NCBI GenBank assembly: GCA_965369305.1
Contig: CBDUQG010000002.1
Location: 1-33,631, forward strand
Source: an uncultured bacterium
Lineage (GTDB): Bacteria > Patescibacteriota > Gracilibacteria > UM-FILTER-43-11
Length of the DNA stretch: 33,631 bases
Direction: 5' to 3'
Shown here: one piece after another, positions 26,967 to 33,360 of the stretch
Position numbering within the stretch: the first letter of the stretch is position 1
Layout: each line of letters opens with the position of its first letter
Made by a program: the position numbers and the translations under genes
The notes under the pieces: model-generated
The model's database searches: none
Told to the model about the DNA's origin: nothing
The model's input: only the letters and a program-made list of their open reading frames with translations

Positions 26967-27926
26967 TTAGCCGCGCATGATGAGGAATATGATGTAAAAA
27001 ACATAACAAGCCAAAAAGAGCCAACCGTCAAAACGACTCACATGATTCTTTTGTCCGGTGAACGCAAAGGCAAAGAGCATGATGGCCGCCCCAAGGTATA
27101 CCAATATATCTGTATTGATTTCCGGGCGGAAAGGGAGGGGTTTGATGGTTGCCGAAAGACCCAGCACCCAGAACACATTAAATAGGTTAGAGCCCACGAC
27201 ATTTCCGATGGCAATATCAGCATTCTTTTTCCAGGCAGCTACAGCCGATGTGGCTAGTTCTGGAAGAGATGTACCTACAGCGACGATAGTCAGGCCGATC
27301 AAAGCTTCACTGATACCGAACTTTGTAGCAATTTCGATCGCACCGTTGACCACCCACTGTCCTCCAAAAGCAAGCCCGAGAATACCAGCCGCTACCATCA
27401 CAAAAGCCTTCGCAATTCCATGTTTTGGCACGGCCCCATTGTTGTGATGTTCAGCTTTGGCAAGACCAATAGTGTAGTAGACAAAAATAATGAAGAAGAG
27501 CATCAGAATGATCCCGTCAATGCGCGTAAGAATAGATGTACTGGCGCCGTCAATAATGGCGTCATTGGCCAGAGCAAGAAGGGCTAAGGCCGCCAGAAAG
27601 TTGAGTGGAATTTCCTTCCAGGTCGTGCTTTTTTTGATGCGAAGCGGATAAATGGCTGCCGCAACACCCAAAATCAGGAAGATGTTGGCGATATTACTAC
27701 CCAAAACGTTACCGATTCCAACATCACCGGCACCCTGAAAACTGGCAATGATATTGACTAAAAGTTCGGGCGCAGAGGTTCCAAAAGAAACAATGGTCAG
27801 TCCGATCACCAACTGAGAAATCCCAACCCTATGGGCCAGAGAGCTACTACCATCAACAAGATAGTCCGCCCCCTTGATCAGGAAAATAAAGCCGAGAGCA
27901 AAAAGAATGTAGGTAAGCATGGGCAT
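26967..27926 (-). CDS. Ca2+/Na+ antiporter (CaCA / YrbG family)
   Basis: The start is placed at MPMLTYILF (ATG at 27926; an alternative ATG is at 27920). Two alpha-repeat motifs are present (GTSAPELLVNI...GNVLGSNIANI and GTSLPELATS...GNVVGSNLFNV). Confidence 0.85.
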   Translation of the reverse strand: MPMLTYILFALGFIFLIKGADYLVDGSSSLAHRVGISQLVIGLTIVSFGTSAPELLVNIIASFQGAGDVGIGNVLGSNIANIFLILGVAAAIYPLRIKKSTTWKEIPLNFLAALALLALANDAIIDGASTSILTRIDGIILMLFFIIFVYYTIGLAKAEHHNNGAVPKHGIAKAFVMVAAGILGLAFGGQWVVNGAIEIATKFGISEALIGLTIVAVGTSLPELATSAVAAWKKNADIAIGNVVGSNLFNVFWVLGLSATIKPLPFRPEINTDILVYLGAAIMLFAFAFTGQKNHVSRFDGWLFLACYVFYIIFLIMRG

Positions 27927-27982
27927 GAAAAATAACTGCAACCATATTAAATATTCAGGCGTATAATGTACATGGCATGTAG

Positions 27983-28011
27983 TTGACAAAAAATGAAATA
28001 TTGGTCATAAT
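27983..28011 (+). promoter_or_regulatory. Sigma70-type promoter (TTGACA-17 nt-CATAAT) for the 533-aa gene
   Basis: Read directly from the sequence. The -10 ends 12 nt before TTG 28024 and 18 nt before ATG 28030, which implies a very short or absent leader. Confidence 0.55.
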
Positions 28012-28023
28012 TAACAGCCATAG

Positions 28024-29625
28024 TTGTCCATGTCACCTAATCAACCCGACAAACCAAAGGAAGAATTCACACCCAGACAATATTTAGAAGTTATTGGGCT
28101 GGGAACTGGCAAAGATTTAGATCGCCGAAAGCTAGTGGAATACCTCAAAAAAAATGGTGGTGAAGTTATTCGGGAAACCCGTAGACTCATCAGGGAGCAT
28201 ACTGGTTTTGAGCCAAATGGACTTAAAGCTAGAAAGGATACAAACGGCATGCCACCAACCTCATCAAGGCTTAATGCAAAGGAGCAAGCAATCAATGCTC
28301 AACTAAAAGCTAAACTTGAGTTTCTCCAAAAATACAAGGAAGAGAAAAGGGAGTCGGGCCTAAGTAGTATGGGCTATGAAGCTGACAAATATATCAGGCA
28401 ACTGATCAGTGATGTTTTTCCAGGTGATGGGTCTGCGTCACTAAACGGAGAAATTGCGAGTTGTAATGATGCAGCCAAATTAGTACTTTGGTCTTTTGAT
28501 GACAGATATGCACCCATAATTAAATTTGAAGCAGCCCGTAAGTTGCTCCTGATGAAATTCATCGCTGAAATTCGTGATTACAGCAAACAAGAGGAGGATA
28601 ACGACAAAGCGCTTCAGTACATGATGGATGTCTTCAACGAAAGAGTGGTCGATCTACCCGAAGGTGGCAGAATTGGTGACACGGTTCCACATTATCTTCT
28701 TTCAACTCATGACCCTGAAGATTATCGTACAGTAGATGCCAAACTCCTAAAGCAAAAGCCTAATAGCATGGAAGGTAATCGTCCCACTCAGCTAACCAAA
28801 CTTCCATGCCGCAGAACAATAGTTATAAACCTTGAGGGGGAGGAAAGAGAAATATTCTTCTACCTCGACCAGCGAGGTAAAACACCTGAATCCAGACTAA
28901 CTAAAACACTAAGGTACGGTTCAAAAATAGGAGAAAAGGATCTGGATCGAAACGGGTTCAAGCTTGTATTTGAAGAACGTGAAGACTGGGAGGATTTCTT
29001 CAGAATGTTCCAGGAGGAGATCAAGAACGAAGTCAAAGATGACTTGTATGACCGGATGGACGTGGCAGAATCTGAAGAAGACCTTGCAAGGTTACAGGCC
29101 CGGATTGACAACATAGATGAATCTATTGAGATTGATGAAAAAGAGTGGAAAGACAGCCTTGATGGAAAGGGCTTTAAAGGAAACGGAAAAGGAAGTTCCG
29201 AAAATCTTAAGGTGCTCAAATTTAAGATGAAAGTAACACGAGGAGACGGTCGCAAACACCAATATGAATTTCAAATCTTTCTACCAGATGGATTTGCTGA
29301 TACGGAATACCGCAAAGGAGTGAGTTGGGATGAGTACCATGCCAAGCGATTCTTCAAAGAAAAGCTTGATGAAGTACTATTTCCACCTGAGCTATATCCA
29401 GATATTGACCGCAAAAAGAGTCAGGAAGAGGCCATGAAGCAGGCACATGAAAAAGTGTGGGGTGATCAGGCCGCTATGATTCAATCCACTCCTCAATCAT
29501 CTGGTTTTTTCGCTTCCATTCTTCCACGAGCCATTCGCGAAGGTGTGCTTCCTGCTTTGCGGGATCGATATTTGGCCCTAAAAGCTCGTTTCTTTTCACT
29601 TCTTGACCGTGTGCGTGGAAAGTAG
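28024..29625 (+). CDS. Hypothetical protein with a putative divergent RelA/SpoT-like nucleotidyltransferase core
   Basis: 533-aa ORF starting at TTG 28024 or ATG 28030. Residues ~265-445 carry, in order: R284-x-K-x3-S-x3-K294 (QRGKTPESRLTK), D308-R-N-G-F-K, a beta-strand LKVLKFKMKV, Y-E415-F-Q-I-F, and WDEYHAKRF. This is the motif order of the RelA/SpoT synthetase fold. The assignment was made by eye only. Confidence 0.35.
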   Translation: MSMSPNQPDKPKEEFTPRQYLEVIGLGTGKDLDRRKLVEYLKKNGGEVIRETRRLIREHTGFEPNGLKARKDTNGMPPTSSRLNAKEQAINAQLKAKLEFLQKYKEEKRESGLSSMGYEADKYIRQLISDVFPGDGSASLNGEIASCNDAAKLVLWSFDDRYAPIIKFEAARKLLLMKFIAEIRDYSKQEEDNDKALQYMMDVFNERVVDLPEGGRIGDTVPHYLLSTHDPEDYRTVDAKLLKQKPNSMEGNRPTQLTKLPCRRTIVINLEGEEREIFFYLDQRGKTPESRLTKTLRYGSKIGEKDLDRNGFKLVFEEREDWEDFFRMFQEEIKNEVKDDLYDRMDVAESEEDLARLQARIDNIDESIEIDEKEWKDSLDGKGFKGNGKGSSENLKVLKFKMKVTRGDGRKHQYEFQIFLPDGFADTEYRKGVSWDEYHAKRFFKEKLDEVLFPPELYPDIDRKKSQEEAMKQAHEKVWGDQAAMIQSTPQSSGFFASILPRAIREGVLPALRDRYLALKARFFSLLDRVRGK

Positions 29626-30403
29626 ATCCGTAAGGATCCTGAGAATTTGGATCCACACTAGAGCCAACTGTCATGTTAAGAATTCGAACTGGCTTATTCA
29701 TGGTTGCAGAAAGGGCGGTCATAAGCCCCCCACTTTTCGGGAAACAGGTGTAAGGCATGGTTTCATGCAGGTCGGGATATTTCTCAGCCATCTTTTCACG
29801 GGACTGAGTTAATCTTTTTTCAGTAGGCCGATGTCCATCAGGAAATATAAAGAGCGAGTCACCTGGTCTGAGTATTTTATCGCAGCCCTGCCTGATATCA
29901 GAAACAGCGGATTCACGATTTTTACGATTGATAGGAATCATCATGTTACCCAGATAGGCAGGCCAGCCTAAAATAGGTGGAAGCATTCTAGGATCATAAA
30001 GCATGCCCTTTTTACCAATGGGCCTGAGGTCAGGACTGAACTTTTTTGCCGCCACGTCACACCAGGACCAAAAGTAAGGATCATTGGGATGGTTAGACAA
30101 AATAATGCCCCGCTCACCCTCCCCAATTTCAGAAAATTCACCGTGTGTTTCCACATCATAATTCATAAAATCCTCAGCATGTGCTGCAGAGTCAGCGGCA
30201 AATCTGGCTGGCAAACCAGGAAAGCTTGGTCGCTCTCGTTTTAGCAAAGCCTTAAGCGCACCTCGATAAATTTCAGCATCATACTTAAAAAGAATCGGCA
30301 GTCCGGTAATGGCAAGAAACTTCTTTCGAATACTGTGTTCTGTAGGCAGCTTAGGCGCCAAAGCAACATCAGTTTTGCTCATTTTTTGAGAATTTTTGGA
30401 CAT
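29474..30403 (-). CDS. YihG / AGPAT3-5-type lysophospholipid (1-acylglycerol-3-phosphate) acyltransferase-like protein
   Basis: 309-aa ORF. An alternative start at 30382 forms an ATGA overlap with the upstream stop. It is collinear with E. coli YihG: ILSNHPNDP (vs NHRSWAD), FIFPDGHRPT (vs FVEGSRFT), CFPKSGGLMTAL (vs LPPKAAGIAMAL), REWLVEEWKRKNQMI (vs QQWLNSLWQEKDRLL). The catalytic box reads H-x2-D, not H-x4-D. Confidence 0.5.
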   Translation of the reverse strand: MSKNSQKMSKTDVALAPKLPTEHSIRKKFLAITGLPILFKYDAEIYRGALKALLKRERPSFPGLPARFAADSAAHAEDFMNYDVETHGEFSEIGEGERGIILSNHPNDPYFWSWCDVAAKKFSPDLRPIGKKGMLYDPRMLPPILGWPAYLGNMMIPINRKNRESAVSDIRQGCDKILRPGDSLFIFPDGHRPTEKRLTQSREKMAEKYPDLHETMPYTCFPKSGGLMTALSATMNKPVRILNMTVGSSVDPNSQDPYGSTFHAHGQEVKRNELLGPNIDPAKQEAHLREWLVEEWKRKNQMIEEWIES

Positions 30404-33360
30404 ACTTTATAAATAACGAGAGGTGATAATAACAGGATTGTCAAAAAAAGCAAAGTGCCACGTCCGCCTCCCTCTTCAGGCTCAACAGTTCTTAAATCAG
30501 CAGTAGCCGGTTCAATGGAGAGAAGACTCTTGAATTGTCCTGACTCATAAACACTGATCTGAACAGGTTTTGAAAAGTCGATAAGCTCTCTGGTCAAAGA
30601 TATATCAACTGGTGAATTTGCATAGGAAACGGTGACTTTTTGGTTAAGATTTAGTTCAAGAGTGAGCTTCTGGTTTTCATCATTCACCTCAGCAACCAGC
30701 CCGGAATAAACTGTAGCCGGAAGATCAGATTGGTAAGAAGTGAGCGGCCGGCTGAAGCGGTGACGAAGTCCCGAAGACTTCTTTTTTGCTTTTTTGGAAC
30801 GTGGCTTGGGCACCCAGTCTCCACCAGTATGACTAAATACTTCATTTGTGTGTGTTTTGTCATAACAGATCTGATCAACCAACATACCCCATGGATCCAG
30901 CAAGTTCACGCAGTCATTACTGTTGTTTAGAGAAAGTTTTGTCTCTTGCTTTCGAAAAGTACGAATAGCACCAGGAGCAATGGCACCACCCGAAATCACA
31001 TGAGGATCTGATCCAACATCAAGATTATCGTCTAAAGACCATCCATATAGACAGATTGTCACCGGACCGGTATTAATGAGCTTTATATATTCAGTAGCCT
31101 CACCTTTTTTTGGAGCTGGCAGGAAGCTATCGATTTTTAGATGTTCTGACGAGCAGTCGGGCCCACTAATAACAGGGGCTTCTGCCTCTTCTGGCAGAAC
31201 TACTTCCTCTTCAACAATCTCTTCTTCAAGGAGGAGTAAGAGTTCTTCATCCAGAACTAATTCTTCTTCAGATTCTTCTTCAAGTAGCTCTAAAAGGAGA
31301 TTCCCGACTTTTTTATTCTGCCAAAGTCCTAATTCTGATTCCTTGGCTTCAGACTCAGCCAGAACAAAATCTTCAAGGTGCGTAAAAGGAAATCGGGTAT
31401 AGGCATGGCCATAGCCTTGGGCCACAATAGAACGGTTAATCATTTCATCACCCAGGTAAACGTAGGCAAGCACGCGACCATATTTATCTATTTTATTCTC
31501 ATCGAACTCCAAGGTCACCCATTGACTGCCAAGCTTTTCGGAAAGAAAGTTTGACGCCTGCTTTCCAAAATATTCGACGGGCTTAAAGGGGTGAACAGTT
31601 TCCGGAGTATCAACTCCAATGAGGCGCACAGTTAGTCGCCTTTCGTCAAAACTCACCACCAAGGTATCTCCGTCAATCGTTCTGACAACCTCGGCCTCCA
31701 TTCCGTTTTTGAGAGCATCAGGATTAAAAAGCCACCGTCCCGAAGCAGATGACTTCCATTTGATTTCATCAATGAAGTTTCCAGTCGCATCAAAAAGGGT
31801 GAGGCTCTCATCAGAGTTATTGAGCGAAACTTTAAAATCCTGACCTACCAAGGTGAGCGAGTCTTCGGGCTGAATGCTGAGGTCCGCCAGCAACTTTTCT
31901 GATCCGCTCGCATCCAGAATCGACCAACCTGCAAGACTGACTGGTTCAAACGTTTTGTTAGAAAGAATGATTTTTTCATTTCCTGAATCCGTGCCTTCAG
32001 GATTGGGCAGTACACTTTCAAAAACCACATCACCTGGCTGATAAGGTTTGGGTGGCGGAGGAAAGTCATTTGGATCACCAGGAGTAAAATTAGGCGTCCA
32101 CTCATAAAGATCACCAGACACTCTAGCATAGGTCCAGTTTTCCTGAGCTTCAGAATACTTTATTTCCTGATTCACATTCTTGTTTGGATCAAGCACCCGC
32201 ACAACGTCTTCTGAATTTTTGAAAGACAAACCTATATCTGGTTCAGAAAAAACCAAATAGGAATCAGGCATGATCACTGTGAAGTCTGGAATTTTATAAG
32301 GCCGGCTTTTACCTTCGGCGTCATCAATGTACCAACCCGAAAGATCAATGCCGAAAGGATTAGGATTATAAAGCTCCACCCACTCATTTTCATCATCCTT
32401 GCCTTCGGGAGAAGGCATGACTTCGTTTATTAGATTGTATATGGGATAGATCTCGTCTTCAGGACCACCGCCTGACCCCTTTGGTTTGGCCTCAAAAGTG
32501 ATTTCCGCCTCACTGAAATCACCGTAAGAATCGGTCACTCTCAATCTAACGATTTTTTCACCCGACTGTTCATAGGTGTATTTCAGAGGGTTCTCACGTT
32601 CATCAAAAACACCCTCTTCAAGCTCCCACAGGAAGGTCAGCTTGTCTCCATCAGGATCATAACTAGATTCCCCTGTCACATTGAGCTTCATGTGCTTGGT
32701 GTCCTTTTGAATTTCAATAACGGCAACCGGAATCTTGTTTGGCTCGATAAAATTCAGCTCACCTGGCGTGGGTGTTTTAAAAACCAGCCACTCTTCATAG
32801 TTTTCAGGGCTTCTACCCCAAGAACGACCTGAACCCTGAGAATCGAATTCAAAGAAATCCATCAATTCACCCTCAGCATTGAATAGGCTAACAGAATCAG
32901 TGTCGTTATTGAGAGTGATTTTAGTTTCAGGACGAAAAAAGACTAAATAGGAATCGGGCTCGAGCACATAATTCAGACTTTCATTGTCAAAAGTATAAAG
33001 TCCGCCATCGGATCTTGCGTCATCCAGCTGCCAACCCAAAAGATCTACCGGCTCAGAACCCATATTGTATAGCTCAATGAATTCATTCTCACTGTCCTTT
33101 TCAGAAGGATCAGCGAGCACCTCATTGATAACAATGGCTGAATCTATTTCTGATTCAGATTCAGATTCAGATTCAGGCTCTGACTCAGGTATCGGTTCTG
33201 GGTCTTCCGGCTCCAACTCAGGGACTTCCGTATCAGAGTCTTCTGGCAAGGATTCTGCTTCCTCAAATGGAGCATCGGGCACTTCATCAGCCAAAGCAAT
33301 GAAGCTAGACTGGAACAGAAACAGCTGTAGGGAGAACAGAAAAGTGAAGATTTTTTTCAT
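30379..33360 (-). CDS. Secreted, C-terminally membrane-anchored multidomain nuclease: LTD - PKD - LTD - LTD - staphylococcal nuclease (SNase) - acidic linker - LTD - TM
   Basis: 993-aa ORF with a signal peptide. It has four lamin-tail-domain signatures (INEVL..EFIELYN..VDLLGWQLDD; INEVM..EWVELYN..IDLSGWYIDD; two more degenerate) and a PKD-like module (SSYDPDGDKLTFLWE). The SNase core has intact catalytic motifs (IDGDTLVV, VRLIGVDTPET, YGRVLAYVY). A C-terminal TM helix reads LLFLTILLLSPLVIY. Confidence 0.8.
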   Translation of the reverse strand: MKKIFTFLFSLQLFLFQSSFIALADEVPDAPFEEAESLPEDSDTEVPELEPEDPEPIPESEPESESESESEIDSAIVINEVLADPSEKDSENEFIELYNMGSEPVDLLGWQLDDARSDGGLYTFDNESLNYVLEPDSYLVFFRPETKITLNNDTDSVSLFNAEGELMDFFEFDSQGSGRSWGRSPENYEEWLVFKTPTPGELNFIEPNKIPVAVIEIQKDTKHMKLNVTGESSYDPDGDKLTFLWELEEGVFDERENPLKYTYEQSGEKIVRLRVTDSYGDFSEAEITFEAKPKGSGGGPEDEIYPIYNLINEVMPSPEGKDDENEWVELYNPNPFGIDLSGWYIDDAEGKSRPYKIPDFTVIMPDSYLVFSEPDIGLSFKNSEDVVRVLDPNKNVNQEIKYSEAQENWTYARVSGDLYEWTPNFTPGDPNDFPPPPKPYQPGDVVFESVLPNPEGTDSGNEKIILSNKTFEPVSLAGWSILDASGSEKLLADLSIQPEDSLTLVGQDFKVSLNNSDESLTLFDATGNFIDEIKWKSSASGRWLFNPDALKNGMEAEVVRTIDGDTLVVSFDERRLTVRLIGVDTPETVHPFKPVEYFGKQASNFLSEKLGSQWVTLEFDENKIDKYGRVLAYVYLGDEMINRSIVAQGYGHAYTRFPFTHLEDFVLAESEAKESELGLWQNKKVGNLLLELLEEESEEELVLDEELLLLLEEEIVEEEVVLPEEAEAPVISGPDCSSEHLKIDSFLPAPKKGEATEYIKLINTGPVTICLYGWSLDDNLDVGSDPHVISGGAIAPGAIRTFRKQETKLSLNNSNDCVNLLDPWGMLVDQICYDKTHTNEVFSHTGGDWVPKPRSKKAKKKSSGLRHRFSRPLTSYQSDLPATVYSGLVAEVNDENQKLTLELNLNQKVTVSYANSPVDISLTRELIDFSKPVQISVYESGQFKSLLSIEPATADLRTVEPEEGGGRGTLLFLTILLLSPLVIYKVCPKILKK
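33152..33175. repeat. Hexanucleotide microsatellite (GATTCA)x4 inside the nuclease N-terminal linker
   Basis: Four perfect tandem copies read directly, with degenerate copies on both sides. They encode the (SE)n tract. Confidence 0.9.

Follow-up and report, generated by a model that had tools for sequence, protein, structure and literature searches.

What kind of protein is encoded at positions 28024-29625 on the plus strand of contig CBDUQG010000002.1, from an uncultured, ultra-small bacterium of the Patescibacteriota, and what might it do for its cell? We analysed the 33,631-nucleotide stretch of this contig that carries the gene (the window; all window coordinates count from its first letter). 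An earlier note on this DNA had described an orphan protein with a cryptic RelA/SpoT synthetase core at residues ~265-445, split by an insert. Our comparison of sequences shows that the gene product is indeed homologous, if very divergent, to the synthetase domain of RelA/SpoT homologues (RSH), which synthesise the stress signal (p)ppGpp of bacteria. We think it probable, though far from certain, that it is a housekeeping RSH pyrophosphokinase, that is, an alarmone-type synthetase, from a family that has so far gone unannotated and in which every named member comes from the Patescibacteria. The open reading frame (ORF) is present just as the note gave it, with 533 amino acids (aa) counted from a TTG at 28024. 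Since the database gene caller uses the ATG at 28030 and homologues align from that methionine, this ATG is most likely the true start, giving a protein of 531 aa (P0001) encoded at 28030-29625 on the plus strand, with the stop codon at 29623-29625. We number residues as in P0001; the numbers in the earlier note are higher by 2.

The protein is not an orphan. A word-indexed protein search finds 13 close homologues with 39-63% identity, and an exhaustive HMMER search, covering 1.84 billion representatives of clusters at 50% identity, finds at least 150 clusters of relatives at E < 1e-3, 90 of them at E < 1e-10. Matches to distant relatives usually span residues ~100-480, and residues 1 to ~95 are therefore a lineage-specific extension. 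All named relatives belong to Candidatus Peregrinibacteria or to 'Patescibacteria group' metagenome-assembled genomes (MAGs), a taxonomic range that rests on few named members, the cluster look-up having yielded almost no organism names. A profile search of a 5.8-billion-protein index returned nothing beyond the close homologues already found, and a locus search with the close-homologue alignment returned only 4 GTDB loci.

It is the width of this family that makes the RSH core visible. When 92 distant relatives are scanned singly, 20 of them match Pfam RelA_SpoT (PF04607) below threshold (best E = 3.8e-5), and all 20 matches begin with the R-x-K-x3-S motif at position 1 of the model, in a common register. 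Compared with PDB sequences, a profile built from the 92 sequences has as its top seven matches RelQ/YwaC, RelP, two more small alarmone synthetase (SAS) structures, Mycobacterium Rel and RelA, with E values from 1.8e-3. Profile-profile alignment with hhalign, using RSH templates assembled from E. coli RelA, SpoT and PDB alignment printouts, matches the C-terminal half of the family to the RSH synthetase domain. With 10 templates the probability is 95.6% (P = 1.2e-8, 141 aligned columns, motifs in register), and the score of 58.4 compares with at most 14.7 for a reversed and 60 column-shuffled controls; with 7 templates the probability is 87.8%, and the score of 48.3 compares with at most 21.5 for reversed and column-shuffled controls. 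Against E. coli RelA as a single sequence (a template whose effective number of sequences, Neff, is 1) the family gives no match in hhalign.

Structure prediction points the same way. The AlphaFold2 model, with a predicted local distance difference test score (pLDDT) of 82.9 and a predicted template-modelling score (pTM) of 0.75, has a secondary-structure order, beta-alpha-beta-alpha-beta-beta-alpha, that fits the RSH synthetase domain. The structure search proposed in the earlier note returns RSH enzymes: in the PDB, Foldseek gives its first 16 places to catalytic regions of Rel, SpoT and RelA, at probabilities up to 0.98 and with E ~1e-2 and whole-chain template-modelling (TM) scores of 0.2-0.3, and the best match in a viral structure library, weak in absolute terms, is annotated 'RelA/SpoT'. 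Given such weak absolute E and TM values, we treat the structural evidence as corroborative and not decisive. Profile tests, controls, structure search and residue conservation nevertheless agree on the proposed core, and the motif-to-motif mapping of the earlier note coincides with the hhalign register.

Could such a core still bind ATP and Mg2+? We counted conservation over 139 family representatives. The Syn1 motif, R282-G-K284-TPE-S288-RLT-K292-TL-R295 (28873-28914, plus strand), aligns in hhalign with G-R-x-K-x3-S-x3-K-x2-R of Rel, RelA, RelP and RelQ, and by equivalence with SaRelP would stack on the ATP base and bind its phosphates. In SaRelP, R78 (RelSeq R241, here R282) stacks on adenine, K80 (RelSeq K243, here K284), K88 (RelSeq K251, here K292) and R91 (here R295) bind phosphates, and S84 (RelSeq S247, here S288) binds the alpha-phosphate (PMC5794853). 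R282 is kept in 127 representatives, K284 in 137, K292 in all 139 and R295 in 124. The Syn2 motif, D306-RN-G309-F-K311-LVF (28945-28971, plus strand), places a putative Mg2+-binding aspartate on a beta strand. D306, equivalent to RelSeq D264, RelA D275 and the Mg2+ ligand D107 of SaRelP (PMC5794853), is invariant (139/139), G309 is found in 129/139, and the K311 position, where RelSeq has R269 and SaRelP the adenine-stacking R112 (PMC5794853), is R or K in 76/139; the register is the one that had been proposed, with the aspartate kept and lysine in place of arginine.

Further along the chain, two strands covering residues 394-418 (29209-29283, plus strand) occupy the positions of Syn3, with K-V-L-K397-F-K-M-K-V, and of Syn4, with Y-E413-F-Q415-I-F-L. 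By alignment E413 is the putative catalytic, Mg2+-binding glutamate, equivalent to RelSeq E323, RelA E335 and the Mg2+ ligand E174 of SaRelP (PMC5794853); it is kept in 136/139 representatives and K397 in 126/139. The Syn5 helix, W/H433-D-E-Y436-HAK-R440-FF (residues 433-443; 29326-29358, plus strand), lies at the RSH H-x-x-Y-K position, as the earlier note had read its WDEYHAKRF; position 433 is H in 67 representatives and W in 46, while Y436 is kept in 105 and R440 in 130. The histidine H190 of SaRelP contacts the ATP ribose (PMC5794853). The alignment thus shows a conserved ATP/Mg2+ set of R282, K284, K292, R295, D306 and E413, each present in 124-139 of the 139 representatives. It includes all four residues on whose conservation the note had staked its proposal, R284, K286, D308 and E415 in its numbering.

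Several observations weigh against our reading as an RSH pyrophosphokinase. The protein itself gives nothing meaningful in Pfam, NCBIfam, PADLOC or PDB sequences; the profile of 14 close homologues likewise has no meaningful match. The Pfam check that had been suggested therefore fails for the query and gains its support from the sub-threshold relatives and from hhalign, and even the best relative, at 24.4 bits, stays below the RelA_SpoT gathering score of 27 that defines membership in the curated hidden Markov model (HMM). The structural matches, as said, are weak. All the motifs quoted in the earlier note are present, and their conservation in the family marks them as more than chance; its K294 (our K292) is invariant, but its S290 (our S288) is conserved only moderately (66/139), as is Q415 of Syn4.

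The acceptor pocket also departs from the canonical form. The strand aligned to Y-Q-S-x-H reads V-L-K-F-K, with neither Tyr nor His, and the query has no residue in register with the canonical acceptor-stacking tyrosine (SaRelP Y151, RelSeq Y308). In SaRelP this G-loop tyrosine is critical for guanosine binding (PMC5794853). The query's putative G-loop, D375-S-L-D-G-K-G-F382 ... G-S-S, stands at the end of the insert and adjoins a 10-residue insertion. Position 382 of its G-x-G-F382 motif, upstream of that insertion, is F in 52, Y in 30 and H in 13 of 139 representatives (95/139 in all), and F382 may be a displaced equivalent of the acceptor-stacking aromatic. The strand LKVLKFKMKV is thus where the earlier note had put it, at the place of Y-x-S-x-H, with the possible aromatic lying some 10 residues upstream. 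Because Y-x-S-x-H is not kept and an insertion adjoins the putative G-loop, a guanine-nucleotide acceptor is not assured; with the pocket remodelled, the acceptor is uncertain.

Does the family hold other clues to what is made? Eight distant members (P0091, P0122, P0127, P0136, encoded at L007 81-2276, P0140, P0141, P0153 and P0159) carry a C-terminal NUDIX domain, with Pfam E values down to 2.3e-11, although a strict NUDIX-box regular expression finds no match in these fused relatives. In P0136 a phosphoribosyltransferase-like segment, 'NVLIVDDVGGT', with a weak Pfam match (E = 0.016), lies between the two domains. In Thermus thermophilus a NUDIX enzyme is known to degrade ppGpp (cited in PMC3153485), so that the fusions favour a small nucleotide as the product, both made and destroyed, as happens with bifunctional Rel. 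Three other relatives, of 1060-1147 aa (P0066, encoded at L015 6001-9183, P0081 and P0107), carry the whole module, N-helical part and synthetase, twice in tandem. All catalytic residues are kept in copy 1, while K284, K292 and D306 are gone from copy 2, a pattern one would expect of residues that serve catalysis in a module that pairs with a second copy of itself. Judged by its residues, copy 2 is a built-in pseudo-enzyme partner, and the duplicates hint at a dimer.

How far could the remodelled pocket depart from alarmone synthesis? The best-surviving alternative, which we nonetheless regard as unlikely, is an RSH-fold pyrophosphokinase that uses as acceptor something other than a free guanine or adenine nucleotide. 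The RSH homology and the intact ATP/Mg site suit it as they stand, and so do the replacement of the Tyr/His acceptor strand by the Lys-rich K-V-L-K-F-K-M-K and the many conserved basic residues (R170, K171, R261, K397, R440). The genes of several members adjoin those of aminoacyl-tRNA synthetases and of the CCA-adding enzyme, and pyrophosphorylation of tRNA by RSH toxins is established (10.1101/2021.04.30.441581, PMC11245113). Translation genes, however, dominate neighbourhoods in tiny genomes anyway, the NUDIX fusions suggest a small product of nucleoside-diphosphate type, and the sequences and structures that match most closely belong to RelQ, RelP and Rel rather than to CapRel or FaRel2.

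The earlier note had left two options, a divergent stringent-response enzyme and a fused toxSAS-like effector, and the genomic setting separates them in favour of the first. Orthologous loci share the gene order pheS, a gene of EPSP-synthase fold (murA-like), PrsW, Mur ligase, Na/Ca exchanger, our gene, an acyltransferase gene that is only sometimes present, a lamin-tail/staphylococcal-nuclease (LTD-SNase) gene and RNase Y. This order persists across MAGs even where orthologue and query share no more than 42-63% identity, and in every orthologous locus the gene forms a monocistronic unit, with housekeeping genes that are divergent on one side and convergent on the other. Distant members have genes for aminoacyl-tRNA synthetase, RecJ, CCA-adding enzyme, UvrD and TsaD as neighbours. 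Eight loci (the window and seven relatives) contain no defence-island-type genes, the PADLOC defence models find no match, and phage, plasmid and IMG/VR collections hold no relatives. Fixed gene order, lack of mobile relatives and lack of a defence model together are the signature of vertically inherited housekeeping genes and not of toxin-antitoxin (TA) or defence systems, and they show that the gene has been inherited vertically as a stand-alone gene among housekeeping genes.

Such a setting makes it very unlikely that the protein is a toxSAS-like effector, whether a CapRel-type single-chain fused TA or defence protein or a toxin exported against host bacteria. It is true that the RSH core is flanked by extra domains that could auto-inhibit it, and that fused CapRel-type systems are known (PMC9712102); Patescibacteria moreover are epibionts, and exported alarmone synthetases exist (PMC12691689). 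Yet to the fixed position of the gene, its lack of mobile and defence associations and its monocistronic arrangement we can add that no antitoxin-like small ORF adjoins it, as the earlier note had also seen (its neighbours being the divergent Na/Ca exchanger gene and a convergent acyltransferase-like ORF), that its N-terminus does not resemble a signal peptide, and that CapRel (7ztb) is absent from the profile and Foldseek matches. An RSH-derived protein that is no pyrophosphokinase at all, be it a nucleotide-binding regulator, a pseudo-enzyme or an enzyme of other nucleotidyl- or phospho-transfer chemistry, would suit the extreme divergence without direct model match, the large insert and extra domains and the family's tolerance of pseudo-enzyme copies, but it has little chance against a full ATP/Mg ligand set that is nearly invariant over at least 139 clusters and that, in the tandem proteins, has disappeared from just the second copy, as expected if the first copy is catalytic.

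We return to the housekeeping pyrophosphokinase and to how it would be built and work: a helical N-terminal domain, followed by an RSH synthetase domain that an acidic insert interrupts. Most likely the enzyme would bind ATP-Mg2+ and pass the beta,gamma-pyrophosphate on to an acceptor nucleotide at its 3'-OH, giving a (p)ppGpp- or (p)ppApp-like alarmone. The helix of the N-terminal domain that carries E167, R170 and K171, together with the basic residues R261, K397 and R440, might aid acceptor binding or regulation. In the NUDIX-fused relatives synthesis and degradation would be joined in one protein, much as with the HD domain of Rel. The role we expect is chromosomal growth or stress signalling in reduced genomes.

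The chain opens with a helical extension, residues 1-95 (28030-28314, plus strand), found only in close (Peregrinibacteria-type) relatives and modelled with helices at 15-22, 32-42, 45-58 and 78-95; the majority of distant homologues match only from residue ~95-140 on. A family-wide helical domain follows at residues 96-215 (28315-28674, plus strand), with the motif R/K-F-E-A-x-R-K-L, in which E167 is kept in 125 of the representatives, A168 in 135, R170 in 126 and K171 in 136. The note had been unable to assign this N-terminal region, and it resists assignment still: modelled alone (residues 1-215, pLDDT 76) it has no structural neighbour by Foldseek (best E = 1.3), and no relative of it could be detected. 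Since long RSH enzymes outranked SAS enzymes in Foldseek, we considered a degenerate HD hydrolase here and rejected it; hhalign of residues 1-215 and 90-215 against the N-terminal regions of Rel, RelA and SpoT gives a probability below 1%, and Foldseek finds no HD protein.

A beta-rich lead-in and the RSH synthetase domain itself take up residues 216-445 (28675-29364, plus strand), with support from hhalign, profile and Foldseek. The insert, which the note had placed at ~333-395 in its numbering as an acidic, coiled-coil-like segment of ~65 residues, covers residues 331-393 (29020-29208, plus strand), with 19 Asp/Glu against 10 Lys/Arg in 63 aa. It is largely helical in the model, is gapped against RSH enzymes in hhalign and varies in length, being ~31 aa shorter in P0014 and ~40 aa longer in P0010/P0012. 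After the core comes a C-terminal helical segment, residues 446-480 (29365-29469, plus strand), with the motif L-F-P452-x3-Y456 (P452 in 133/139, Y456 in 121/139) and helices at 446-450 and 461-477. The tail, residues 484-531 (29479-29622, plus strand), is not conserved and is missing from most homologues; it consists of a disordered stretch (pLDDT < 50 for residues 485-507) and then an amphipathic helix. The chain thus ends ~90 residues past the synthetase core, and Pfam finds no TGS, ACT or other C-terminal regulatory domain in the query or its close homologues.

The gene has its own near-consensus promoter and almost no leader, in keeping with the earlier note. The sigma-70-type promoter TTGACA-17 nt-CATAAT (27983-28011, plus strand) matches at 11/12 positions, its -35 and -10 hexamers are kept upstream of the orthologues in L003, L004/L010, L011 and L012, and the leader of ~12 nt has no obvious Shine-Dalgarno sequence. 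Upstream, a gap of ~109 bp separates the gene from the divergent Na/Ca exchanger gene. The mechanical ORF of the exchanger (26967-27989, minus strand; 340 aa from TTG 27989) is probably overlong: its homologues are called at 317 aa, which would put the start near 27920 and give the divergent intergenic region this length. Just 5' of the -35 hexamer stands a perfect 8-bp palindrome, ATGTACAT (27966-27973), embedded in a block AATGTACA(T/C)GGC (~27964-27977) that five intergenic regions of orthologous loci share (those of the window, L003, L004/L010, L011 and L012). The block could serve as an operator, or it could belong to the promoter that drives the divergent Na/Ca-exchanger gene.

At its other end the gene shares its last 152 nt (29474-29625) with the 3' end of the convergent, acyltransferase-like ORF at 29474-30403 on the minus strand, whose Pfam Acyltransferase score of 21 bits is just below the cut-off. 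The same overlap occurs in L003, the closest relative; other orthologues stop ~50 residues sooner with a 4-nt overlap, or have no acyltransferase gene beside them (L004). Conserved beside our gene in orthologous loci, and in the window at 30379-33360 on the minus strand, is a gene for a 993-aa protein in which a signal-like N-terminus is joined by four lamin-tail domains, one PKD domain and one staphylococcal-nuclease domain. The protein has the look of a nuclease that is secreted or sits at the cell surface, which would fit nucleotide scavenging. The family member of some distant lineages is followed directly, on its own strand, by unannotated ORFs of 71-405 aa (L014 7504-8115, L016 2479-2715, L009 7449-9239); the window's locus has none.

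What would such an enzyme mean for these bacteria? Much of bacterial diversity falls within the Patescibacteria (the candidate phyla radiation), and to our knowledge almost nothing is known of their growth regulation. Our literature searches turned up no RSH or (p)ppGpp system described in Patescibacteria; the 2011 and 2020 RSH censuses do not mention these lineages, and a perspective paper on Patescibacteria biology mentions neither (p)ppGpp nor the stringent response nor alarmones. The present family gives a concrete candidate for the synthesis of a nucleotide second messenger in Patescibacteria. It also adds to the RSH superfamily a branch that goes unrecognised by the present Pfam and NCBIfam models, with unusual features of its own: a novel N-terminal domain, NUDIX-fused variants, and tandem variants that combine a catalytic with a pseudo-enzyme module. 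Should the acceptor pocket differ in the way its sequence indicates, the enzyme could be making a new signalling nucleotide.

A bolder proposal, which we put forward only tentatively, is that the family is Patescibacteria's own, and possibly sole, alarmone system, with a new sensory N-domain, no sensing of the ribosome, a remodelled pocket that possibly makes a nucleotide other than (p)ppGpp and, in some lineages, a NUDIX domain in cis. If this were true, the NUDIX pairing in cis would be an independent re-invention of the logic of bifunctional Rel, which combines a synthetase with an HD hydrolase domain. Canonical Rel is absent from the loci we covered, namely the window, the homologue loci and E. 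coli reference loci (~190 kb), a scope that falls short of whole genomes.

How, finally, does the protein compare with the known systems? With the SAS enzymes RelQ and RelP (PF04607; PDB 6fgk, 6ewz, 5dec) it shares the catalytic domain by profile-profile alignment, the motif order R-x-K-x3-S-x3-K-x2-R, D-x-x-G-x-R/K, E-x-Q, H/W-x-x-Y and the status of a stand-alone chromosomal gene. At ~530 aa, however, it is far longer than RelQ and RelP (~210-230 aa), and it differs from them in its extra 215-aa helical N-terminal domain without known fold relative, in the acidic insert of 45-60 aa between Syn2 and Syn3, and in having the G-loop Tyr and Y-x-S-x-H out of register. In the strict sense a SAS consists of the synthetase domain alone, whereas here a conserved N-domain of 120-215 aa and the C-terminal segment are integral. 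Like toxSAS and CapRel-type proteins, the protein combines a (here predicted) RSH synthetase fold with additional non-canonical domains, but bicistronic antitoxin partner, PADLOC match and link to mobile elements are all lacking, and inheritance is vertical and syntenic. The long RSH enzymes provide the best whole-chain structural matches (7oiw, 8acu, 7ohg, 6s2u, 5xnx, 7qpr, 5iqr); the synthetase motifs align with RelA 245-356, and the two share a housekeeping chromosomal gene and a helical region before the synthetase domain. Unlike Rel, RelA and SpoT, however, our protein has an N-domain that is neither HD nor pseudo-HD, has no hydrolase in cis, the place being taken in some relatives by the NUDIX domain, and is without the TGS, helical, ZFD and ACT/RRM regulatory domains. 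Since TGS, ACT and the other C-terminal regulatory domains are missing, so is the apparatus for sensing ribosome and deacyl-tRNA. With an N-domain and an insert of its own and no TGS or ACT, the protein is thus neither a long RSH nor a single-domain SAS.

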